Positions 3,069-58,785 of a stretch of 64,000 nucleotides of DNA are shown piece by piece. Positions within the stretch are counted from its first letter, which is position 1. Each line of letters starts with the position of its first letter. Origin of the DNA: an uncultured Gammaproteobacteria bacterium (GTDB taxonomy: Bacteria; Patescibacteriota; Patescibacteriia; Magasanikbacterales; UBA922); assembly GCA_964394405.1 (NCBI GenBank), contig CAYMVY010000003.1, forward strand, positions 29,224-93,223, given 5' to 3'. A program made the translations under genes and the position numbers. Under the pieces are notes generated by a model. The model saw nothing but the letters and a program-made list of their open reading frames with translations, was not told where the DNA came from and made no database searches.

Positions 3069-4121
3069 TTAGTATGTGTATAATGTCGATTGCGGGTCTG
3101 CAGTGATATCTTTCCAGCCCATGGTTTTTTTTGCTTGAAAACGGTGATATCCAGCGACTGCAATCATCGCAGCGTTATCAGTCGTGTAGGCGAGTTCAGG
3201 AAGACGAAATGCAATATGTAATTTTTTTGTAAGCGCTTCGAGTTCGCCTCGAAGTTTTTTGTTTGCAGAAACTCCACCTGCGAGGATAAGCGTGTTTGGT
3301 TTGTGTGCTTTGATCGCAGTCGTTGTTTTTGAAATTAGTACGTCAGTGATTGCAGTTTCTACGCTGGCACACACATCCTCGATGGTAAATTCACCTTCTT
3401 CGTTTGTAAACTTTGTTTTTTCAACAGTAATAGGATGATTTTTTAGCCAGTATAATACTGAGGTTTTTAATCCTGAAAAACTCATATCAAGATCATGTGA
3501 ACCATGCATAGGACGGGGGAATGATATTTTTGTATCATCTCCATTTTCAGCTAGCTTAGAGATTTTTGGTCCACCAGGATAGGGGATACCGAGAAGCTTT
3601 GCGACTTTATCAAAACATTCACCCACCGCATCATCTCTTGTGCCCCCGATTTTTTCATATACCCCTTCTTTTGGTGACCATGCGAGTTCAGTGTGTCCAC
3701 CACTCACGATTAATGCAAGAGCTGGGTATTGAATTTCATTTCGTTCTTTTTCTGTCTTTGAAATTTCTGGAGAATAAAAATGTCCTTCGATATGGTTGAC
3801 TGGAATAAGCGGGATGTTCCAGACATATGATAATGTTTTTGCAGCTTCAACTCCGACTAGAAGTCCGGTGATAAGACCGGGGCCGAATGTCACGGCAATG
3901 GCGTCTGGTTTTTCTTGATTTTTTAATACTTCTTCAATAACCGGAGTAATGTATTCTGCATGCAATCTTCCTGCAACTTCTGGGATAACCCCACCAAATT
4001 TTGCATGTATATCAATCTGGCTTGCAGTTTTTTCTGCAAGCACGGTTAGGTTTTTTTCGTCTATTTCTATGAGTGCGACTGAGGTGTCGTCACATGATGA
4101 TTCGATGCCGAGTATTCGCAT
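3069..4121 (-). CDS. tsaD: tRNA N6-adenosine threonylcarbamoyltransferase TsaD (Kae1/YgjD family)
   Basis: N-terminus MRILGIESSCDDTSVALIE and ASKH-fold motifs. 350 aa is typical. Lies 12 nt upstream of the Ppa-like ORF on the same strand (operon). Confidence 0.9.
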   Translation of the reverse strand: MRILGIESSCDDTSVALIEIDEKNLTVLAEKTASQIDIHAKFGGVIPEVAGRLHAEYITPVIEEVLKNQEKPDAIAVTFGPGLITGLLVGVEAAKTLSYVWNIPLIPVNHIEGHFYSPEISKTEKERNEIQYPALALIVSGGHTELAWSPKEGVYEKIGGTRDDAVGECFDKVAKLLGIPYPGGPKISKLAENGDDTKISFPRPMHGSHDLDMSFSGLKTSVLYWLKNHPITVEKTKFTNEEGEFTIEDVCASVETAITDVLISKTTTAIKAHKPNTLILAGGVSANKKLRGELEALTKKLHIAFRLPELAYTTDNAAMIAVAGYHRFQAKKTMGWKDITADPQSTLYTY

Positions 4122-4169: not shown

Positions 4170-4198
4170 TTGACAATCTATACTTTTTTTACTATACT
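4170..4198 (+). promoter_or_regulatory. Sigma70-like promoter TTGACA-17-TATACT upstream of tRNA-Glu
   Basis: ttgacaatctatacttttttactatact read directly. Spacing is 17. Confidence 0.4.
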
Positions 4199-4224
4199 TT
4201 TCGCTACTAACACTTGAAATTAAT

Positions 4225-4297
4225 GGCGTCATCGTCTAGTGGTTAGGACACCAGGTTTTCATCCTGGGAACCGGGGTCCGATTCCCCGTGGCGCTAC
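4225..4297 (+). tRNA. tRNA-Glu (anticodon UUC)
   Basis: Cloverleaf folded by hand: acceptor GGCGUCA/UGGCGCU (two G-U pairs), D-arm GUCU..GGAC, anticodon stem CCAGG/CCUGG with loop UUUUCAU, T-arm CGGGG-UCCGAUU-CCCCG. No encoded CCA. Confidence 0.75.
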
Positions 4298-4303
4298 AAC
4301 TAC

Positions 4304-4334
4304 AAACCCAACTCACTTGAGTTGGGTTTTGTTT
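4304..4334 (+). terminator. Rho-independent terminator after tRNA-Glu
   Basis: Hairpin aaacccaactc-actt-gagttgggttt followed by a T-run. Confidence 0.55.
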
Positions 4335-4342
4335 GTATGCCT

Positions 4343-4379
4343 GTAAAATTGAAAGACCCCGCATCCGAAGATGCGGGGC
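4343..4379 (-). terminator. GC-rich hairpin terminator for the minus-strand island gene
   Basis: ccccgcatc-cgaa-gatgcgggg. On the minus strand it is followed by tctttcaatttt. Confidence 0.5.
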
Positions 4380-4409
4380 TTGTCTCCTTTGCAAGAGACT
4401 GTCGGACGA

Positions 4410-5177
4410 TCAGTGGTCGAGAGCCATCCGCTGGATGGCGCTCTCGATCCGCTGACGCTCGTCCGTGTGTGTCGGGAAGAGACTGCGCCAGTGAAGGACG
4501 ATCTTGTCCATCGCCTCCTGCTCGCGCGCCTCCTTGCTCGGTTGGTGGTAGTTGGCACCCACGATCAGCGGCACTCGCAGGTCGAGCATGGTGTAGCTGT
4601 ACTCACTCAGTGCGAGCATGCCGAGGAGGAAGTCGATGTCCTCCATGCCGCCGATCGCGTCACACCTGGCGTCGAACCCACCCATGAGCGGACCGAACGC
4701 CTCGATCCGGACCAGCATCCCAGTGTTACGCGGGTGCCGGTACGATCGTCCCAGGGAGACGATGTTCCCATCCTGTCGCCCCTCGAACGAGGTGCCGACC
4801 ACGCCGACCTTGGGGTCATTGATCGCGGCGTCGAGCATGGCCTCGAGGTGCTGTCTCGTGAACTGCGCCTCGACGCTGATGTTCATGACGAAGCGGAAAC
4901 GATTCCGCTCCCGTACGTTCGCCATGAACACGGCTTTGAAACCGATGTTCAGGGCGTTCGCCCACGAGTAGCCCTCGTGCATCTCGATGAGTTGCACGTG
5001 GCCGGCTTCGATGAACCCTCCGAGGAAGCCTCGGGTAGCGCCTCTGTCCTTGGTGGCGTCCGTAACGACGATGATCTTACCGATCCCCGCGTTACACAGG
5101 CTTGAGACCTGTTTTTGGACGAATTTGTTGTTGTAGGACCGCAGAATCGCGGCCGTCTGGTCCAGTCTGTCACGCAT
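4410..5177 (-). CDS. GT-A fold (family-2-like) glycosyltransferase, encoded in a strongly GC-rich island
   Basis: GT2-like motif order IIVVTDATKD .. GYSWANALNIG .. GGFDARCDAIGGMEDIDFLLG (compare GGFDE..EDxD). The region is visibly GC-rich, with long ORFs on both strands. The antisense ORF 4371..5105 looks like low-complexity junk. Confidence 0.5.
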   Translation of the reverse strand: MRDRLDQTAAILRSYNNKFVQKQVSSLCNAGIGKIIVVTDATKDRGATRGFLGGFIEAGHVQLIEMHEGYSWANALNIGFKAVFMANVRERNRFRFVMNISVEAQFTRQHLEAMLDAAINDPKVGVVGTSFEGRQDGNIVSLGRSYRHPRNTGMLVRIEAFGPLMGGFDARCDAIGGMEDIDFLLGMLALSEYSYTMLDLRVPLIVGANYHQPSKEAREQEAMDKIVLHWRSLFPTHTDERQRIESAIQRMALDH

Positions 5178-5347
5178 GATGTTTAGCGTGTTCCTTTGCC
5201 CCTCTCAAGGGCTTTTGGAAGTAAGATTCCGCGTCCTGTGGTACCCATTTGAGGTATGTTGGGACGATCCACCACACTATGATGGACGTCGAATAATATC
5301 ATATTTTAGCCATTTTGTCAAGTATACTCTTCGATATACGCTGTCTA

Positions 5348-34730: not shown

Positions 34731-34733
34731 GAG

Positions 34734-34806
34734 CCGTCTTAGCTCAGCTGGTAGAGCAACGGTTTTGTAAACCGTCGGTCCGGGGTTCGAATCCCCGAGA
34801 CGGCTC
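34734..34806 (+). tRNA. tRNA-Thr (anticodon UGU)
   Basis: Acceptor GCCGUCU/AGACGGC perfect, D GCUC/GAGC, anticodon stem ACGGU/ACCGU with loop UUUGUAA, T-arm CGGGG-UUCGAAU-CCCCG. No CCA encoded. Confidence 0.85.
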
Positions 34807-34872
34807 GCTGACTATAATCAAGATAGTTAAACGGTTTTGCTTGTCCCGATGAGCGAAAGCGATATCGGGATA

Positions 34873-34911
34873 AACCGTCGGTCCGGGGTTCGAATCCCCG
34901 AGACGGCTCGT
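34873..34911 (+). repeat. Direct duplicate of the 3' half of tRNA-Thr(UGU), from anticodon-stem 3' strand through the acceptor 3' strand
   Basis: aaaccgtcggtccggggttcgaatccccgagacggctcg is identical to positions 34771-34808. The anticodon 5' part aaacggttttg lies at ~34830, separated by a 31-nt hairpin cttgtcccgatgagcgaaagcgatatcggga. Confidence 0.55.
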
Positions 34912-39018: not shown

Positions 39019-39091
39019 GCCGTCATAGCTCAGTTGGTAGAGCGCGTCCATGGTAAGGACGAGGTCTCCAGTTCAATCCTGGATGACGGCT
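39019..39091 (+). tRNA. tRNA-Thr (anticodon GGU)
   Basis: Acceptor GCCGUCA/UGACGGC, anticodon stem CGUCC/GGACG with loop AUGGUAA, T-arm UCCAG-UUCAAUC-CUGGA. Confidence 0.85.
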
Positions 39092-39103
39092 CAAAAAAAT
39101 AAT

Positions 39104-39135
39104 CTGCCCGTAAGGGCGGGTTATTTTTTTGTTCG
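39104..39135 (+). terminator. Weak terminator hairpin with U-run after tRNA-Thr(GGU)
   Basis: ctgcccg-taag-ggcggg followed by ttattttttt. Confidence 0.45.
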
Positions 39136-39264
39136 TGAACAGTAGGATTGAACTGAGGGAAGGGTGAAACCGTAAGGTTTCACTGGGCTGAGGAAGAGTA
39201 TTGAGAAACCCGAAGGTTTCTCAAAGCGCACCCCGCCCTTCGCGAAGAGCGGGGGAGCAGTGAA

Positions 39265-39290
39265 ATCCCTGGATGACGGCTCAAAAAAAT
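39265..39290 (+). repeat. Direct repeat of the 3' end of tRNA-Thr(GGU) plus A-run, ~190 bp downstream of the gene
   Basis: aatccctggatgacggctcaaaaaaat versus the original aatcctggatgacggctcaaaaaaat at 39074-39100. It is followed by a second taag-loop terminator, tctccc-taagtt-gggaga followed by attttta. Confidence 0.5.
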
Positions 39291-43605: not shown

Positions 43606-45393
43606 ATGGAAATTAGAAATATTGCAATTATCGCCCACGTAGACCACGGCAAGACCACCTTGACCGATGCTTTGCTTCGCGAATGTGGGATGATTACTGA
43701 AGAGGGACAGACTATGGACTCAAACACGCTTGAAAAAGAGCGTGGTATTACGATTTATGCAAAAAACACTTCTTTGTTCTATAAGGGAACCAAAGTGAAT
43801 ATCGTCGACACTCCAGGTCACGCGGACTTCGGATCTGAAGTAGAACGCGTACTTCGCTCGATTGATTCAGTGTTATTGGTTGTTGATGCGCAGGAAGGTC
43901 CTATGCCTCAGACCAAATTTGTATTGAAAAAATCTCTTGAGATTGGACTCAAGCCAATTGTGGTATTGAATAAAATCGATAAGCCGGCTGCTAGACCTCA
44001 GGAAGCGCATGATATGGTACTTGAATTATTCATGGATCTTGGAGCAAATGATGAACAGCTCAATTTTACGACCGTATATGCAATCGGCAAACTTGGCGTT
44101 GCAAAAAAGAATTTGACTGATGAATCAAAAAATCTCGAACCATTACTCGATACTATTTTGGAAAAAGTTCCAGCTGCTCCGCATGATATTGAAAAACCAC
44201 TTCGCATGCAACCATTCAATCTTGCATACGATAATTATTTGGGACGTCTTGCAGTAGGGCGTATTTATGAAGGAGTAGTGAAACAGGGTGATAAGGTATT
44301 TATTAAAAATCAGGACGGAACGACTCGAACAGGAAATATTACCAAAATTCAAAATTTTAAAGGCTTTGCTCGTGAAGAAGTTCAAACTGCTGAAGCAGGG
44401 GATATTGTGATGATTGCAGGAATTCCAGATATTTATATTGGTGAAACTATTTGTGCTAGCGCAGATCAGGAAGCATTGCCTGCGATCAAGGTTGACGATC
44501 CGACTATTTCTATGGATTTTTTGGTCAACAATTCTCCGTTTGCAGGAAAAGAAGGAACCTATGTTACGAGTAGACAGATTCGTGAGAGACTTGAAAAAGA
44601 ACTTGAAGTAAACGTAGGTCTTCATGTTGATTTTACCAATTCAGATCGATTCACTGTCTATGGTCGTGGAGAAATGCATATTGCAATTTTACTTGAAAAC
44701 ATGCGCCGTGAAGGATTCGAACTCCAGGTGTCTCAGCCAAAAGTAATTATCAAAGAAGAAAATGGAGAAAAAGTAGAACCATTTGAAGAAGTCACGATTG
44801 ATGTACCTGATGTGTACGTTGGAACGATTATTGAAAAAATGAGTAAACGAAAAGGAACGATGACGAATATGATGCCTGAGGGTGGACATACTCGTATTAT
44901 TTTTGAAATTCCGACTCGCGGACTTCTTGGTTATCGTGGAGAATTTGTGATGGATACTCGTGGAGAGGGAATCATGGCATCACGAGTGACGGGATTCCGA
45001 CCTCATGTGGGTGTGATTGAAAAGCGAGAAGTGGGAAGTATGGTTTCTATGCTTACTGGAAAAGCACTTGGGTATGCTCTCTGGAATCTCCAGGATCGAG
45101 GTACACTCTATATCGGACCAAATATTGAAATCTACGAAGGAATGGTTATTGGAAATGTTTCCAAAGGTCAAGATATGGCAGTAAATGCAATCAAAGGAAA
45201 GAAACTTACGAACATGCGCGCAAGCGGAAGTGACGATGCGATTATCCTCACCCCTCCATTTGAAATAACCCTTGAGCGTGGTATGGAAATGATGAATGAT
45301 GATGAATATCTCGAAATTACTCCACAAAGTATTAGACTTCGTAAGAAATATTTGACTGAGGTTGAGCGGAATAAGGCGAAAAGATCTAGCTGA
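43606..45393 (+). CDS. typA: Translational GTPase TypA/BipA
   Basis: IRNIAIIAHVDHGKTTL, DTPGHADF, NKIDK G-motifs. 595 aa with the BipA-specific C-terminal domain. Confidence 0.95.
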   Translation: MEIRNIAIIAHVDHGKTTLTDALLRECGMITEEGQTMDSNTLEKERGITIYAKNTSLFYKGTKVNIVDTPGHADFGSEVERVLRSIDSVLLVVDAQEGPMPQTKFVLKKSLEIGLKPIVVLNKIDKPAARPQEAHDMVLELFMDLGANDEQLNFTTVYAIGKLGVAKKNLTDESKNLEPLLDTILEKVPAAPHDIEKPLRMQPFNLAYDNYLGRLAVGRIYEGVVKQGDKVFIKNQDGTTRTGNITKIQNFKGFAREEVQTAEAGDIVMIAGIPDIYIGETICASADQEALPAIKVDDPTISMDFLVNNSPFAGKEGTYVTSRQIRERLEKELEVNVGLHVDFTNSDRFTVYGRGEMHIAILLENMRREGFELQVSQPKVIIKEENGEKVEPFEEVTIDVPDVYVGTIIEKMSKRKGTMTNMMPEGGHTRIIFEIPTRGLLGYRGEFVMDTRGEGIMASRVTGFRPHVGVIEKREVGSMVSMLTGKALGYALWNLQDRGTLYIGPNIEIYEGMVIGNVSKGQDMAVNAIKGKKLTNMRASGSDDAIILTPPFEITLERGMEMMNDDEYLEITPQSIRLRKKYLTEVERNKAKRSS

Positions 45394-45420
45394 TTAGTTT
45401 ACTGGTTTTCTAATCGGTTA

Positions 45421-45530
45421 AACTTAAAACTCAAATGTCAAAACGAAAAACTATAACTTAAATCTCAAAAATTTTGAGTTTTTAGTTCCAGTTTGAAGCT
45501 TTGAGTTTTACGTTTTGAGCTTATTTGAAT
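45421..45530. repeat. AT-rich palindromic intergenic element, family B copy 1 ('aaaactcaaa / tttgagtttt' units)
   Basis: ..aaaactcaaatgtcaaaacgaaaaactataacttaaatctcaaaaattttgagttttt... Its reverse complement matches 58713-58785. Confidence 0.5.
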
Positions 45531-45567
45531 ATCTCTAACTATTGGGCTATACTGTTCTTTATTCTAT

Positions 45568-45638
45568 GGGCGCGTGGTGAAATGGTGAGACTTTGGTCTC
45601 CAACCCCACCCTTCGCGAAGGGTGGGGCGATTCCCACT
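45568..45638 (+). pseudogene. Degenerate copy of tRNA-Trp: the first 19 nt are identical to the intact gene and the rest is decayed. It carries a GC palindromic hairpin.
   Basis: gggcgcgtggtgaaatggt is identical to 45917-45935. The anticodon loop CUCCAAC (still CCA) is retained but the stems are broken. The ccccaccctt-cgcg-aagggtgggg hairpin replaces the variable/T region. The 3' strand cannot pair with the acceptor. Confidence 0.5.
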
Positions 45639-45663
45639 ATACACTTGTTGATTAAGGGGGGGT

Positions 45664-45912
45664 ATGTATTATGTTTATCTGTTGAAAAGTTTCAAAGATA
45701 ATGGATTGTATATAGGATATACCCATGATTTACGTCGGAGATTTCAAGAACATACTGAAGGCGAGGTTGATTCTACAATGCATCGAAGGCCGTTAATACT
45801 TCTCTATTACGAAGCTTATGAGATATGTGAACGAGCACAAGAAAGAGAAAGAAAGTTGAAAAAATTTGGTTCCGCGTATACTGCACTTTTAAAACGTTTG
45901 AAAATTAAGTAA
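45664..45912 (+). CDS. Standalone GIY-YIG nuclease superfamily protein (UPF0213/YhbQ-like, 82 aa)
   Basis: YVYLLKSFKDNGLYIGYTHDLRRRFQEH..G...T.....P..LLYYE matches the GIY..YIG..R..H..E core. AT-rich (host-like) composition. The stop lies 5 nt before tRNA-Trp. Confidence 0.75.
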   Translation: MYYVYLLKSFKDNGLYIGYTHDLRRRFQEHTEGEVDSTMHRRPLILLYYEAYEICERAQERERKLKKFGSAYTALLKRLKIK

Positions 45913-45916
45913 ACAT

Positions 45917-45987
45917 GGGCGCGTGGTGAAATGGTATCACTAAGGTCTCCAAAACCTTCGTCGTAGGTTCGATTCCTACCGCGCCTG
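45917..45987 (+). tRNA. tRNA-Trp (anticodon CCA)
   Basis: Acceptor GGGCGCG/CGCGCCU (G1-U72), D GUGA/UCAC, anticodon stem AAGGU/ACCUU with loop CUCCAAA, T-arm GUAGG-UUCGAUU-CCUAC. Confidence 0.85.
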
Positions 45988-45994
45988 CTAAAAC

Positions 45995-46025
45995 AAAAAA
46001 TCACCATATACTGGTGATTTTTTGT
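45995..46025 (+). terminator. Rho-independent terminator after tRNA-Trp
   Basis: aaaaaatcacca-tatac-tggtgattttttg. Confidence 0.6.
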
Positions 46026-46115
46026 TGCTCGCCGACGGGTGTCCTGCGAGCAGGATGCTATTTCGTCGGCGGTGGTCTAGCGCGTGTTCCCACGGCTTCT
46101 CCTTGTGTTGTTGTC

Positions 46116-46439
46116 TCAGAAGTCGATGACCTCGACGTACTCCGGGATCCCGTTCTTCCAGCGGGGATTGAATTCTGGCTGGTTGAAGGTCGAGCGGTAG
46201 AGCCTGCTCAGTTCCCCTGATCCGTCGAAGCGCATCTGGTCCGGTGTCACGACGACGAGGTTGTCCTTGTTGCCGAAGCCGATCTTCAATGCGGCAGTGT
46301 ACGCCTCGTCCATCGTCAGCGGCCAGTTGGCGCGGACGTACTCCTCCATCGTGGTTGCCTTGTAGCCTTCGCTACCCGCTACGATTTTCATCTTGACTTC
46401 TCCGCCCTTGCGGACGGTGATGAGGCCTTGGGTTGCCAT
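46116..46439 (-). CDS. Hypothetical 107-aa protein in GC-rich island 2, with a strong AGGAGG Shine-Dalgarno
   Basis: MATQGLITVRKGGEVKMKIVAGSEGYKATTMEEYVRANWPLTMDEAYTAALKIGFGNKDNLVVVTPDQMRFDGSGELSRLYRSTFNQPEFNPRWKNGIPEYVEVIDF has no family I can name. caggaggaaagcATG on the minus strand. Confidence 0.5.
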   Translation of the reverse strand: MATQGLITVRKGGEVKMKIVAGSEGYKATTMEEYVRANWPLTMDEAYTAALKIGFGNKDNLVVVTPDQMRFDGSGELSRLYRSTFNQPEFNPRWKNGIPEYVEVIDF

Positions 46440-46488
46440 GCTTTCCTCCTGTTGCATTTGGCCGGATACATATACTAAAATTTAAAGA

Positions 46489-46511
46489 GTTTGTCAATAG
46501 TATTGACAAAC
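46489..46511. promoter_or_regulatory. Perfect 11-bp-arm palindrome overlapping the -35 of the helicase promoter (candidate operator)
   Basis: gtttgtcaata-g-tattgacaaac. A promoter TTGACA(46503)-17-TATACT is embedded in it. Confidence 0.4.
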
Positions 46512-46634
46512 CACCCTCTTTCTGCTATACTCGCATTTCATTCATTGGACGGTCATTTGACCGCCCTTCGACTCGAATCTTCTTGTTCCATAGTTATAGT
46601 GGCCCAGTAGACATCGGGTCACTATATTTATTTT

Positions 46635-48151: not shown

Positions 48152-48622
48152 ATGCTGAATTCGATTCCTCTTTTCCTGATTCTGTTCATGACCTTCAACT
48201 GCTCCTCGATCCCTCGCAGTGAGTCGGACGGATGGGAGAATTACCTCGAACTCGTCCAGCGGGTCAAGTATCTCGAGTACGAGCACTACTTCACCACTCT
48301 CGGTCCCATGGCCGAGAAATACTTCCGTGATCCCAACTTTGGTTCTGGCATTTATGCCTACAAGGATGGTGAACTCCTCAAGCTCGGACCGAGTGATGAT
48401 CCCAATGAGATCGTGACGATCGCTGGACATCCGATCAATGGCTGGACGTACTGCGTCTATCGCAGTTTCTATTGGCGTAGAGCGATTGATGGGAGCTTCA
48501 AGCTGATCTCCCAAGAGATCATCGAAGAGGGGATGCCCGAGACGGGCACGTGCAATCCTGCGAACAGGTTTCGCAATCGGGACGACCGACGGTCCACCCC
48601 GAAGATCCGGATCCTGGATTAG
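48152..48622 (+). CDS. Hypothetical secreted/lipoprotein (156 aa) in GC-rich island 3, with an AAAGGAGAG Shine-Dalgarno
   Basis: Signal MLNSIPLFLILFMTFNCSS (Cys after a hydrophobic core). Mature part has no recognised domain. GC-rich, with ORFs open on both strands. Confidence 0.5.
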   Translation: MLNSIPLFLILFMTFNCSSIPRSESDGWENYLELVQRVKYLEYEHYFTTLGPMAEKYFRDPNFGSGIYAYKDGELLKLGPSDDPNEIVTIAGHPINGWTYCVYRSFYWRRAIDGSFKLISQEIIEEGMPETGTCNPANRFRNRDDRRSTPKIRILD

Positions 48623-48692
48623 TAGGACAATACACAACCCCGACGCCTCGTATCGACTGGTCCACGATGCGAATCGCGTCGGGAACAGTCTA

Positions 48693-48722
48693 CCCCGTCT
48701 TTCGCGAAAGACGGGGTTTTTG
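48693..48722 (+). terminator. GC-rich perfect palindromic terminator hairpin at the island 3 boundary
   Basis: ccccgtcttt-cgcg-aaagacgggg followed by ttttt. Confidence 0.6.
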
Positions 48723-48731
48723 TTCGAAGAA

Positions 48732-49706
48732 TTAATTTTTTTGACTAAACCAATTTTTAAAAATGTCAGAGATTTTTTTTCGTGGAGGTTGCTGTGGTCG
48801 AGTGATTTCGATTGTTTCAGGAGGCATCTTTTCTAAATCCAGTGCAGGTTTTGAAGGTATGCGGAGTAGTCCTGGGATTTGCTCTCTTCGTTCTTGGTAC
48901 ACTTGAGTAATTGTTGTTCTAATTATTGGCAGAACGTGTAATTTTAGGGATGTAAGTATGATTTTTTCGAATCCCGATTGTTGAAATTCCCATTCATTCT
49001 CAATATTTTTTTTGATGCTAGAATCCATGTTTTTTATTTCCGTATCTAATTCTATTTTTTTATGCTCTATAATTTGTTTATACAATTTTTCGTAATTGAT
49101 AAAGAATTTATCAAATGCGTTTGTATTTACCAGATTAAATTCAGGATTTTCTTCGACCAGTAGTCCATCTGTCCGTTGTTCCAATTTTACTTTTGCAGCA
49201 GTATATTCATATAGAGTTTCTGAAACTGCCTCATTTATCAGAAGCATTGTGGGGCTTCCTACATCTGTAATTTCTTTCATTCTTTTTTCATTCTCGTATT
49301 GCATTTCATTAAAAAAAGAGTTTATTTCTTTTTTTAAACCTACTGCTTTTTCGTATTGTTCATCATGCTTGATTTCTTGCGTATTCTTTCTCCTCCCACT
49401 TCTGCTTTTTCTTTTCAATATTTCAGCCGTAATTTCGTCGTTGATCGTGCCTATACTATCTACTAGTTCATCGCTCAGGAGTTTAAGAATAGCATCTTTT
49501 TCATTTTCAAAATCCGATTCATATCTTCCGTGAAACGCATCATTCCGATTTGTTATTATTTTATCGATTTCTGTTTTGTAGCGTTTTTGTATTTCTGGAT
49601 CAAGTTGCTCAGAACCTTGCAATAATGATACCCGTATTTGTTCTAGGCCATGTTTTTTTTGCATTTTTCTATCCATGCGATATACCTCCATTGTATTTTC
49701 ATTCAT
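48732..49706 (-). CDS. Hypothetical 324-aa charged/coiled-coil protein
   Basis: Long K/E-rich helical sequence without recognisable enzymatic motifs. AT-rich host-like composition. Confidence 0.5.
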   Translation of the reverse strand: MNENTMEVYRMDRKMQKKHGLEQIRVSLLQGSEQLDPEIQKRYKTEIDKIITNRNDAFHGRYESDFENEKDAILKLLSDELVDSIGTINDEITAEILKRKSRSGRRKNTQEIKHDEQYEKAVGLKKEINSFFNEMQYENEKRMKEITDVGSPTMLLINEAVSETLYEYTAAKVKLEQRTDGLLVEENPEFNLVNTNAFDKFFINYEKLYKQIIEHKKIELDTEIKNMDSSIKKNIENEWEFQQSGFEKIILTSLKLHVLPIIRTTITQVYQERREQIPGLLRIPSKPALDLEKMPPETIEITRPQQPPRKKISDIFKNWFSQKN

Positions 49707-57224: not shown

Positions 57225-58712
57225 ATGGTCGATTTGAGTAAAATTTACGCTACTATCGGTGCTCTTGCAGAAGAGAAGAAAATCCCTGCGTATGCTGTCG
57301 GGGGATTTGTGCGTGACATACTCATGCATCGAGAATCAACCAAAGATTTGGATGTGGTTGTTGAGGGTAGTGGTATTGAATTTGCCAGGGCATTTGATGA
57401 GAGGGTAACACAAGAGGGGAGTCTGATTGAGTTTCCTGACTTTGATACTGCCCGATATGTGTATACCGAGGAAGACGAAGCTGGAAGAAAAATTCATTTG
57501 TTTGAACTTGAATTTGCGGGAGCGCGAAGTGAAGCGTATGATCCTAATTCTCGAAAGCCAAAAGTACAGTCAACCACACTCATCGAAGATTTGAGACGAC
57601 GTGATTTTACTGTTAATGCTCTTGCATTGCCGATTACTCCTCTTGGGCTGAGCAATGAGGTCATCGATCCATTTGATGGCGCAATTGATATTGAGAAAAA
57701 AATTCTTCGTACCCCACTGGATCCTGATGTTACCTTTTCTGAAGATCCGCTTCGAATGCTTCGTGCGGCGCGTTTTGCATCCCAACTTGGTTTTACGATT
57801 GAAGAGGGAACGTATGATGCAATTGCGCGTAATCGTGAACGATTGAAAATCGTATCAAAAGAGCGAGTGTGTGAAGAATTTTTTAAACTTCTCGCTACTC
57901 CAACTCCCTCTGTTGGGTTGTGGATTTTGTATCAAACAGGACTTATTAATGAATTTTTACCAGAAGTAAGTGAGTTGAACGGTGTTGAAGAATTGTACGG
58001 TCATCAACATAAAAATAATCTCGTACATACCTTTAAAGTAGTCGATAATATTGCGGAGCGTACTGATAATGTACTTCTTCGGTTTGCAGCACTTATGCAT
58101 GATATTGGAAAACCAGGGACCAAATCGTTTATCGCTGGACGTGGCTGGGCATTCGATATGCATGAACATTTGGGTAAAAAAATTGTGCGGGACGTAGGGC
58201 GTAGACTCAGGATGAGTAAGGGAGATATTGAATACGTGGCGCTTTTGGTCCGCTGGCACCAGCAGCCTATTTCACTTATGGACGAGGGGGTCACTGATAG
58301 TCCTGTACGACGTTTGATTGTGAATCTCAAAGACAATCTTTCTGACCTACTCACGTTGTGCCGGAGTGACATCACAACTGGAAATCCATATAAGCTCAAG
58401 AAACGATTGAAGAATTATGATTTTCTTGAAAAACGTATTTTCGAAGTAATGGAAAAAGATAAACTCCGGGCATTCCAATCACCAGTTCGTGGGGAGGAAA
58501 TTATGGAGCTTTCAGGGTTGAAGGCCGGACCAACTGTTGGAAAAATTAAGAAGCGAATTGAAAATGCGATTCTTGATGGTGAGATTCCGAATGAATATGA
58601 TGCGGCGAGAGTATATTTTGAGAAGATTAAAGACGAATTTATTAGTCAGGCTGAGGAATGGGAAAAAATAAACTCAAAGCTAAAAACTCAAAAGTCAAAA
58701 CTTTCAACTTAA
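57225..58712 (+). CDS. cca: CCA-adding tRNA nucleotidyltransferase with HD phosphohydrolase domain
   Basis: GGFVRDILM..DLDVVV head domain, RRDFTVNAL, and HD motif (HDIGKPGT). Confidence 0.85.
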   Translation: MVDLSKIYATIGALAEEKKIPAYAVGGFVRDILMHRESTKDLDVVVEGSGIEFARAFDERVTQEGSLIEFPDFDTARYVYTEEDEAGRKIHLFELEFAGARSEAYDPNSRKPKVQSTTLIEDLRRRDFTVNALALPITPLGLSNEVIDPFDGAIDIEKKILRTPLDPDVTFSEDPLRMLRAARFASQLGFTIEEGTYDAIARNRERLKIVSKERVCEEFFKLLATPTPSVGLWILYQTGLINEFLPEVSELNGVEELYGHQHKNNLVHTFKVVDNIAERTDNVLLRFAALMHDIGKPGTKSFIAGRGWAFDMHEHLGKKIVRDVGRRLRMSKGDIEYVALLVRWHQQPISLMDEGVTDSPVRRLIVNLKDNLSDLLTLCRSDITTGNPYKLKKRLKNYDFLEKRIFEVMEKDKLRAFQSPVRGEEIMELSGLKAGPTVGKIKKRIENAILDGEIPNEYDAARVYFEKIKDEFISQAEEWEKINSKLKTQKSKLST

Positions 58713-58785
58713 AACTCAAAAGTTTTAAGATTTGAGTTATAGTTTTTCGTTTTTAATTTTGAGCTTTTAACTTATTTGTATGTCC
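58713..58785. repeat. Family B palindromic element copy 2, opposite orientation to copy 1
   Basis: aaaactcaaaagttttaagatttgagttatagtttttcgttttt is the reverse complement of ..aacgaaaaactataacttaaatctcaaaaattttgagtttt.. at 45440-45490. Confidence 0.5.

Follow-up and report, generated by a model that had tools for sequence, protein, structure and literature searches.

We describe here a tRNA-Trp locus from a 64,000-nucleotide (nt) stretch of DNA, hereafter the window, which spans positions 29,224-93,223 of the forward strand of contig CAYMVY010000003.1 (assembly GCA_964394405.1); its source is by name an uncultured Gammaproteobacteria bacterium, with the GTDB lineage Patescibacteriota; Patescibacteriia; Magasanikbacterales; UBA922. 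We consider it probable (roughly 60%) that window positions 45525-46026 are a transcription unit of tRNA-Trp that hosts a small selfish cassette, whose nuclease gene belongs to a single-domain GIY-YIG family found across the Patescibacteria, and that this cassette is persistent and moves occasionally. Relatives of the locus are given below by L-numbers, which denote their loci or contigs; L001, L002 and L097 are close syntenic relatives, and L003 comes from the same population as L002 in another sample.

The tRNA-Trp unit and its dead half-copy

On the + strand, where all its parts lie, the unit consists in order of a promoter-like site, a dead copy of tRNA-Trp, a ribosome-binding site, an open reading frame (ORF) for a GIY-YIG protein of 82 amino acids (aa), 4 nt, the intact tRNA-Trp and a terminator-like hairpin. 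The first 19 nt of the tRNA gene, GGGCGCGTGGTGAAATGGT, occur exactly twice in the 64 kb (45568-45586 and 45917-45935) with a spacing of 349 nt, a duplication already reported in a first-pass annotation of this DNA; two such matches were found in none of 100 dinucleotide-preserving shuffles, and by local BLAST the identity extends to 21 nt once the preceding AT is counted. ARAGORN and Rfam call a single tRNA at this repeat pair, the intact one at 45917-45988 (Trp, anticodon CCA; 64.3 bits with the Rfam tRNA model), and the upstream copy (45568-45660) gave no tRNA-like match with either program, even in a permissive Rfam scan of 45300-46200 at E<=10, a result that agrees with the one intact and one pseudo tRNA proposed earlier.

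The dead copy comprises standard tRNA positions 1-37 (36 nt, 45568-45603) and is identical to the window's own tRNA-Trp at 31 of 36 positions: beyond the 19 leading nt the alignment runs through the anticodon loop to CTCCAA, at position 37. Its five substitutions disrupt the D and anticodon stems and make a new hairpin, GAGAC-TTTG-GTCTC, and the copy has no acceptor 3' strand; thus the earlier description of a sequence that keeps its CCA anticodon loop but has broken stems and no acceptor 3' strand was accurate. With both stems and the acceptor 3' strand absent and no call by either program, the possibility that the upstream copy is a valid tRNA of another identity was discarded.

Exactly after position 37 begins a perfect GC palindrome of 24 nt, CCCCACCCTTCGCGAAGGGTGGGG (45604-45627), with a 10-bp stem and a CGCG loop, which takes the place of positions 38-55. 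What follows the palindrome ccccacccttcgcgaagggtgggg is a remnant of the T-loop and the 3' strand of the T-stem, CGATTCCCAC (45628-45637), cgattcccac matching 9 of 10 bases of tRNA-Trp; the palindrome had been said to replace the T arm, and while its perfect symmetry stands, the replacement of the whole arm does not, given that this 3' remnant stays. The leader folds locally into two hairpins, GAGAC-UUUG-GUCUC and the 10-bp GC stem. One stable RNA fold for the entire leader was also considered and rejected, being no better than shuffled sequence (z = -0.9 and -0.2); the two local hairpins alone stand out.

The nuclease gene (45664-45912) encodes a catalytic domain only, as matched by Pfam PF01541, and is directly preceded by a purine-rich ribosome-binding site read from the sequence, AAGGGGGGG (45654-45662), which is also present 5' of the ATG in L001 and L002. 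Its stop codon lies 4 nt, and not 5 nt as first stated, from the intact tRNA. At the upstream end a consensus scan gave a promoter-like site (45525-45553; TTGAAT, 17-nt spacer, TATACT; 9 of 12 matches), predicted to be functional, which ends 14 nt 5' of the dead copy; TTGAAA-17-TATAGT/TATACT could be read by eye at the equivalent place in L001 and L002, and the site is presumably the promoter that tRNA-Trp had originally, from which the whole unit would now be driven. At the other end, an A/T-flanked hairpin followed by a T run (45990-46026) is likely an intrinsic terminator, which Rfam aligns locally with the stem of the IS128 terminator; it was not flagged in a simple terminator scan. The simplest reading of the sequence is therefore one transcription unit made of promoter, dead half-tRNA with its hairpin, nuclease gene, tRNA-Trp and terminator.

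Next to the promoter-like site lies an AT-rich palindromic element of ~100 nt that is present twice in the window on opposite strands (45412-45524 and 58672-58772). Its copies share 48 nt at 92% identity and each folds into a long hairpin (z = -3.9 and -5.9); because the element is absent at this place in L001 and L002, it lies outside the cassette.

A GIY-YIG family and its associated hairpin

The 82-aa protein matches Pfam GIY-YIG (PF01541) over residues 1-67 with an E value of 1.9e-13 and 50.9 bits (cut-off 22.6 bits), and Y5, Y16, G18, R26, H30 and E62 are invariant in an alignment of 38 family sequences. Residues 4-44 align with positions 5-45 of the I-TevI catalytic domain (1mk0), a register in which the window residues would correspond to I-TevI Y6, Y17, R27 and H31. 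The best solved structures for the family profile are the UPF0213 proteins BH0048 (1zg2, E 1.3e-12) and EF2693 (1ywl, E 6.4e-10), with far weaker structure-profile matches to SLX1, I-TevI and UvrC. Having the catalytic domain only, a size within ~80-110 aa and significant similarity, the protein fits UPF0213/COG2827, in line with the standalone YhbQ/UPF0213-like GIY-YIG protein that had been recognised in the ORF. Homologues number 424 at E<=1e-3, nearly all of them 80-110 aa long and nearly all from Patescibacteria metagenome bins. Searches of NCBIfam, PADLOC and PHROGs with the window protein returned nothing specific; a phage origin was dismissed, there being only two weak partial matches in viral contigs (both giant-virus bins) and no PHROG family, and an anti-phage defence gene likewise, as no PADLOC family was matched.

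A tblastn search against PLSDB returned a match to a Neisseria gonorrhoeae chromosome (E 8e-5, 35.7% identity, 84% coverage), where the matched locus is a GIY-YIG ORF among NTS/dRS3 hairpin repeats. The entry (L093, NZ_CP119142.1) is a 2.17-Mb chromosome listed in PLSDB as a plasmid, and its ssnA-like ORF is apparently out of frame with the nearest upstream ATG. SsnA is the founding member of the Ssn family (cd10448) of hairpin-directed, single-strand-specific DNA nucleases associated with NTS/SRM repeats (Chenal et al. 2025, PMC11893778). When the window family was compared by hhalign with an NTS-flanked Neisseria SsnA homologue, the probability was 98.4% (E 7.6e-15, 36% identity), so that the window family and SsnA are homologous. 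Membership in Ssn is defined in PMC11893778 by cd10448, or by a blastp E<1e-10 with 75% coverage to N. meningitidis SsnA; the tblastn E of 8e-5, obtained with the N. gonorrhoeae homologue as the sequence compared, falls short of that level. The homology with Ssn is clear, yet in sequence UPF0213 is closer to the window protein than the Ssn clade is.

A scan of one genome per species gave 80 loci of the family, all apparently from Patescibacteria. A tRNA gene on the same strand lies just downstream in 41 of them: tRNA-Trp in 30, starting <=38 nt past the end of the protein match, and another tRNA (Val, Ala, Cys, Ser, Ile, Leu or Thr) in 11, starting <=64 nt downstream. In 7 of the 80 loci a tRNA ends just upstream, and the family was found beside at least 9 tRNA types other than Trp. 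The main type of leader, present in ~20 Trp loci, consists of tRNA-Trp positions 1-37, a GC palindrome of 22-24 nt, CGATTCC and a variable 3' part of the tRNA; in L027, L028, L031 and L037 this 3' remnant reaches as far as the 3' strand of the acceptor or, as in L027, CCA itself. A second type, seen in 5 loci, has GGTCTCCA, a hairpin and TCCAAAACC, and a reverse layout (intact tRNA, ORF, hairpin, 3' fragment of the tRNA) occurs in L019 at tRNA-Glu and in L039 at tRNA-Trp. Members of a Val/Ala/Ile subfamily (L046, L048, L054, L057, L070, L075 and L085) repeat only the first 10-11 nt of their own downstream tRNA, followed by CCCTCA(C); in L057 and L075, whose ORF ends were read, the stop codon TGA runs into the initial GGG of the tRNA, complementary to the CCCTCA motif, and ARAGORN misses the tRNA, which has an additional hairpin in its D loop. 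Five loci have an upstream half identical to their own tRNA and a 3' remnant that is own-like too; recent duplication and gene conversion would both fit.

The hairpin is conserved as a structure. The leader of tRNA 1-37, hairpin and CGATTCC is kept in ~20 species, with its joint at anticodon-loop position 37/38, and among 20 distinct sequences 97% of the cells in the 10-bp stem are paired, with compensatory changes in 4 of the 10 pairs and 20 cells changed on both sides. The covariation score was matched by none of 500 shuffles, and sliding the partner lowers the pairing from 97% to 48-65%. The stem centre TCGCGA is nearly invariant; mismatches of the G-T versus the C-A kind are too few to show which strand forms the hairpin. 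In the window the core CCCTTCGCGAAGGG has only 2 occurrences at <=2 mismatches, with 0.07 expected, and the ORF has a single conserved hairpin, 37 nt upstream of its ATG, and none downstream.

The family is also present in other structured-RNA genes. By Rfam, a member lies inside a 23S rRNA gene (L047), two lie inside RNase P RNA genes (L061 and L050) and one at the 5' edge of another (L069), and transfer-messenger RNA (tmRNA) genes host one internally (L024) and one at the 5' edge (L052). Such insertions may explain some of the 'divergent' or hard-to-detect RNase P RNAs reported for genomes of the Candidate Phyla Radiation (CPR) (PMC8172020). Perfect GC inverted repeats of 9-14 nt, for example CCCCGCACCTTTTA ... 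TAAAAGGTGCGGGG, enclose 26 of the 86 ORFs of the family in which they were counted, the 3' arm overlapping the stop codon in most, and the members in or at the edge of tmRNA, RNase P RNA and 23S rRNA genes have such arms too. The 24-nt palindrome of the window has the look of an ORF-enclosing GC stem of this kind whose arms are joined directly, with nothing in between.

A fixed joint at tRNA position 37/38 could also be left by a classical free-standing homing endonuclease of the T4 Seg type, which would cut double-stranded tRNA-Trp by its sequence and be copied by double-strand-break repair, the hairpin being irrelevant. For such an enzyme there is the precedent of T4 SegB, a GIY-YIG nuclease in a tRNA cluster (PMC2330249), and the cassette-free alleles and tandem copies described below count in its favour. 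However, the entire 82-aa protein is a GIY-YIG domain and has no DNA-binding domain, which every characterised GIY-YIG homing enzyme has (PMC11893778); the allele that bears the cassette keeps an intact, identical target, many further targets of the family are non-homologous, and the conserved hairpin is left unexplained. We thus find an enzyme of this kind quite improbable here.

Fragments of tRNA genes are also found near other tRNAs of the window. After the intact tRNA-Thr(TGT) gene at 34733-34806 there is a partial second copy (34830-34909) with no ORF, in which nt 25-34 and nt 35-74 are separated by a hairpin of 31 nt, CTTGTCCCGATGAGCGAAAGCGATATCGGGA, inserted at anticodon positions 35/36; its matched bases are 100% identical to the gene, with a score of 85 against a shuffle maximum of 35. 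Patescibacteria tRNAs have been reported to carry an unusual group I intron site at this very position, 35/36 (PMC13011429). Likewise tRNA-Thr(GGT) (39019-39092) and its terminator are followed, within 39093-39289, by three GC hairpins, one of which, CCCCGCCCTTCGCGAAGAGCGGGG, is nearly the same palindrome as that of the tRNA-Trp leader, and then by a duplicated tRNA-Thr(GGT) 3' end with its A-run (39265-39289); this region folds far better than shuffled sequence (z = -5.05). In L014, at ~1745-1800, a dead 5' half of tRNA-Thr(TGT) of ~34 nt, ending in the anticodon loop, stands just 5' of the intact tRNA-Thr(TGT), and by eye there is no ORF and no palindrome at the joint; half-tRNA duplicates therefore also arise without a nuclease gene.

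The partial, ORF-less duplicates beside tRNA-Thr(TGT) and tRNA-Thr(GGT) indicate that duplication around tRNA genes is common in this window, a point in favour of explaining the tRNA-Trp locus as an accident, that is, as a decaying partial tandem duplication of tRNA-Trp with a chance ORF. Yet the layout of ORF and leader recurs in ~20-30 species and the hairpin covaries, and with this recurrence the explanation is effectively refuted; we assign it a very small probability, and the same applies to its variants, a group I intron remnant and an att-site duplication left by an integrase. A group I intron or an intron-encoded endonuclease was rejected, as Intron_gpI has no match in the permissive scan and the downstream tRNA is uninterrupted; in the paper on Patescibacteria tRNA introns HNH enzymes are reported, not GIY-YIG, and nothing for tRNA-Trp. 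An integrase island at a tRNA att site was rejected too, because the duplicated part is the 5' end of the tRNA and not the 3' end, and Pfam detected no recombinase or integrase domain in the neighbouring BipA, 113-aa ORF and DEAD-box helicase, the genes taken in by that scan (shorter ORFs in 44-48 kb were listed without scanning).

Signs of movement and of persistence of the cassette

The order BipA, cassette, tRNA-Trp is common to the window, L001 (95% aa identity), L002 (79% aa identity) and L097, the last of which has several extra ORFs between tRNA-Trp and the DEAD-box helicase. Between the window and L001, BipA is 92.7% identical at the nt level, with 119 synonymous and 6 non-synonymous codon differences, and the spacer 5' of the dead copy cannot be aligned; the leader is 96% identical, the GIY-YIG ORF 97.2% (3 synonymous and 4 non-synonymous differences) and tRNA-Trp 100%. 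Synonymous differences are significantly under-represented in the ORF (Fisher p = 9e-5), thus the cassette block looks younger than its flanks.

Other observations also suggest movement. L003 has two cassettes in tandem where L002, from the same population, has a single copy, and its middle tRNA-derived repeat is a fresh set of positions 1-37 joined directly to the hairpin, which puts the point of recombination at 37/38 or among the final 9 nt that are shared; L017 has two copies as well. Cassette-free tRNA-Trp loci with an identical 5' half are present in L088, L090 (after rpmG) and L089, their flanks being different from those of the window. Finally, some loci are mosaics, with an upstream half identical at 35-36 of 36 positions to the functional tRNA-Trp of another species (L011->L015, L033->L011, L023->L038 and L038->L012). 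Host range, tandem copies, cassette-free loci, the younger cassette block and the mosaics are, at the level of sequence, evidence for movement. The claim made at the outset, of a selfish cassette tied to tRNA genes, is supported by these tandem arrays and cassette-free loci together with the downstream tRNA in 41 of 80 loci and the many RNA-gene hosts.

The association is also old, as ORFs in the same context are only 50-70% identical. An ancient arrangement shared with relatives had been named in the first-pass annotation as a finding that would speak against an insertion, and in part this is what we see: the layout recurs with such divergent ORFs, and the element is persistent as well as mobile. 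Similarly, the upstream copy had been called decayed. It is a dead derivative of tRNA-Trp, but free decay seems a poor description of it: the 36-nt dead half, 'decayed' positions included, is identical in the window, L001 and L002, and in ~20 species tRNA positions 1-37 are followed by a covarying hairpin. Because this half and its new hairpin are unchanged while the ORF differs by 21% in nt between the window and L002, the half looks constrained (or recently exchanged). As a whole the first interpretation was largely right, missing the role of the palindrome as the hallmark of the element and the spread and age of the layout.

These signs of age open the way to an explanation in which nothing selfish is involved. 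The gene could be a domesticated, vertically inherited operon partner, for instance a repair or RNA/DNA-processing nuclease co-transcribed with tRNA-Trp, whose leader would be a functional RNA for processing, stabilisation or attenuation rather than the scar of an insertion. The architecture is kept across deeply diverged lineages with ORFs only 50-70% identical, synteny is common to the window, L001, L002 and L097, the hairpin covaries, the 'decayed' 5' half forms its new hairpin identically in three genomes, and the codon differences between the window and L002 (20 synonymous and 17 non-synonymous) are compatible with purifying selection. Nevertheless, the distribution is patchy and includes cassette-free tRNA-Trp loci, there are tandem copies, and the same family occupies many unrelated RNA genes, including the inside of tmRNA, RNase P RNA and 23S rRNA genes; moreover, when the window is set against L001, the flanks have diverged more than the cassette block, where non-synonymous and synonymous differences stand at 4:3, and the whole leader folds no better than shuffled sequence (z = -0.2). 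On balance, domestication seems unlikely to us, although it has a real claim to consideration.

Several points weigh against the selfish cassette that we prefer. Given the low ORF identity and the kept synteny, vertical descent could explain much of the distribution, and the gene may have been domesticated. Unequal crossing-over within the 9 final shared nt could account for the L003 tandem, and so could a metagenome contig misassembled at a 348-nt repeat. An orthologous empty site, meaning a BipA-tRNA-Trp junction with no cassette, was not found among three metagenome matches, and neither the mosaics nor ORF identities nor flank similarity resolved the direction in which tRNA halves were transferred. 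The 36-nt repeat is not a classical target-site duplication; a literal one, as originally suggested, was not confirmed, and recombination or break repair fits the repeat better than a staggered cut. The window ORF lies outside its hairpin and not between two hairpins. The intact tRNA-Trp of the unit has the same anticodon loop, so a nuclease targeting it would have no obvious self-immunity, and since this intact gene is retained in the cassette-bearing allele no protection from cleavage is evident. The protein is nearer to UPF0213 than to Ssn, its single-sequence match to the Neisseria homologue reaching only E 8e-5, and hairpin-directed cleavage of single strands is proposed by analogy only.

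The surroundings of the cassette show further features. L001 contains at 4050-4115 a second hairpin-bearing fragment of tRNA-Trp, made of CTAAGGTCTCCAA, then CCCCGCCCTTCGCGAAGGGCGGGG and then CGATTCCTACCGCGCCTGC, ~720 nt 3' of the intact tRNA-Trp and past a GC-rich island; the intervening DNA is thus also bracketed by tRNA-Trp-derived repeats. The window itself has three GC-rich islands (4192-5303, 45908-46527 and 48196-48753) with 53-57% GC against a window mean of 41%, two of which adjoin tRNA genes (Glu and Trp), and GC hairpins lie at or near island edges (4357-4378 and 48692-48717), the latter with a TTCGCGAA centre followed by a T run. Pfam gave for these islands a weak glycosyltransferase match for one ORF only. 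The GC-rich 113-aa ORF next to tRNA-Trp (46116-46457, - strand) has no Pfam match and belongs to a rare family of 16 homologues; in L097 a member again adjoins the DEAD-box helicase, with GIY-YIG and tRNA-Trp nearby, and in L094 a homologue is 2 kb from another GIY-YIG gene, beside tRNA-Glu. The GC-rich stretch 3' of tRNA-Trp was examined as cassette cargo and discarded, since the 113-aa ORF is a conserved neighbour of the DEAD-box helicase in L097 and L001 has a different GC-rich ORF there.

Known systems and a possible way of life

Close parallels exist with the Ssn proteins, which are likewise small and single-domain and whose GIY-YIG genes are tightly linked to an adjacent inverted repeat that is GC-rich and forms a hairpin; inverted GC arms on both sides, seen in many relatives of the window protein, add to the resemblance. 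The two families differ in the sequence of the hairpin (CCCCGCCCTTCGCGAAGGGCGGGG in the window family, ATTCCCGCG...CGCGGGAAT in Ssn), in the single upstream hairpin of the window gene as opposed to one on each side, and in the hosts, which are tRNA and other structured-RNA genes in the window family and dispersed intergenic repeats in Ssn. The UPF0213/COG2827 proteins (E. coli YhbQ, B. subtilis YazA, BH0048 and EF2693) are of the same size and have the catalytic domain only, YazA being matched by tblastn as well. To our knowledge, their genes are single-copy and chromosomal, and no link with tRNA genes or hairpins has been reported for them; their function is poorly defined.

T4 SegB offers a GIY-YIG gene among tRNA genes that promotes its own inheritance together with flanking tRNA sequence (PMC2330249); unlike the window protein it is larger, multi-domain and phage-encoded and cuts double-stranded DNA, with no partial duplication of a tRNA and no hairpin. 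In the same phylum, insertions encoding GIY-YIG proteins that are not introns occur in CPR rRNA genes (Brown 2015, as cited in Tsurumaki 2024; Tsurumaki 2024, PMC11270868). They share the superfamily and the non-intron character with the family described here, whose L047 member is in 23S rRNA; however, PMC11270868 covers rRNA only and has no tRNA, tmRNA or RNase P hosts, no hairpin arms and no layout of a dead plus an intact copy. The IS200/IS605 and REP/RAYT systems also combine a small enzyme gene with short GC hairpins that occur solo as well, but their enzymes are HUH transposases, which recognise hairpins in single strands and belong to another superfamily; no HUH gene was noticed near the tRNA-Trp locus, where no search aimed at one was made. 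Neither the paper on Patescibacteria tRNA introns nor the one on divergent CPR RNase P RNAs (PMC8172020) mentions such hosts, hairpin arms or partial duplications, and in the literature searched we found no description of a tRNA-linked architecture of GIY-YIG gene and hairpin. The initial statement that tRNA-targeting GIY-YIG cassettes are not a well-described class therefore stands for this architecture only, with precedents for its parts in PMC2330249, PMC11270868 and PMC11893778. The element is not categorically new: it belongs with hairpin-associated single-domain GIY-YIG nucleases, in overlap with free-standing homing endonucleases and CPR RNA-gene insertions. What is apparently undescribed is the way in which the cassette lives in an essential tRNA gene.

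A possible scheme for this way of life is the following. The nuclease gene would be transcribed from the tRNA promoter and its mRNA freed by ordinary tRNA processing, a cut of RNase P at +1 of tRNA-Trp giving the mRNA its 3' end. By analogy with SsnA, the nuclease may recognise the GC hairpin in single-stranded DNA and nick beside it, at the 37/38 junction. Breaks could then be repaired by recombination between the tRNA-derived repeats, so that the cassette would be duplicated or copied into empty alleles taken up by transformation, and such repair might also shuffle tRNA halves between lineages. As the tRNA-Trp gene is presumably essential and present in a single copy, an intact one would always be kept: only events carrying or regenerating a whole copy would survive, the broken copy being a by-product. 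This mechanism of hairpin-guided nicking and recombination is plausible because the protein is homologous to SsnA. As a speculation, the abundance of hairpins in the DNA of structured-RNA genes, and its frequent single-strandedness during heavy transcription, would make these genes natural targets. GIY-YIG enzymes can cut; we know of no case in which one rejoins DNA.

We tentatively extend this to the family as a whole, in a proposal that we hold to be possible while putting it at somewhat less than even odds. According to it, a single-domain GIY-YIG nuclease and its cognate GC hairpin would constitute a previously unrecognised class of mobile element, colonising the structured-RNA genes (tRNA, tmRNA, RNase P RNA and rRNA) of the streamlined Patescibacteria; the nuclease would nick hairpins extruded from single-stranded DNA, and repair would spread the cassette. 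If this is true, a cassette can survive in a tRNA gene solely when an intact copy is regenerated next to the dead one with its hairpin cap, and the element drives the duplication, replacement and exchange of tRNA genes between lineages. One element family would take in three kinds of finding that have been kept apart until now: the GIY-YIG ORFs of CPR rRNA insertions, RNase P and tmRNA genes with odd extensions, and fragments of pseudo-tRNAs. Its dozens of natural nuclease-hairpin pairs would, if Ssn-like, be candidate sequence-specific cutters of single-stranded DNA. For annotation, dead copies and hairpin-bearing tRNA fragments are a hazard in Patescibacteria genomes. For the biology of these bacteria, the locus would illustrate how even a minimal genome can harbour a selfish nuclease within a tRNA gene that is essential and presumably single-copy. 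The host would not be killed, since the cassette always leaves an intact copy and borrows the promoter and processing signals of the tRNA.

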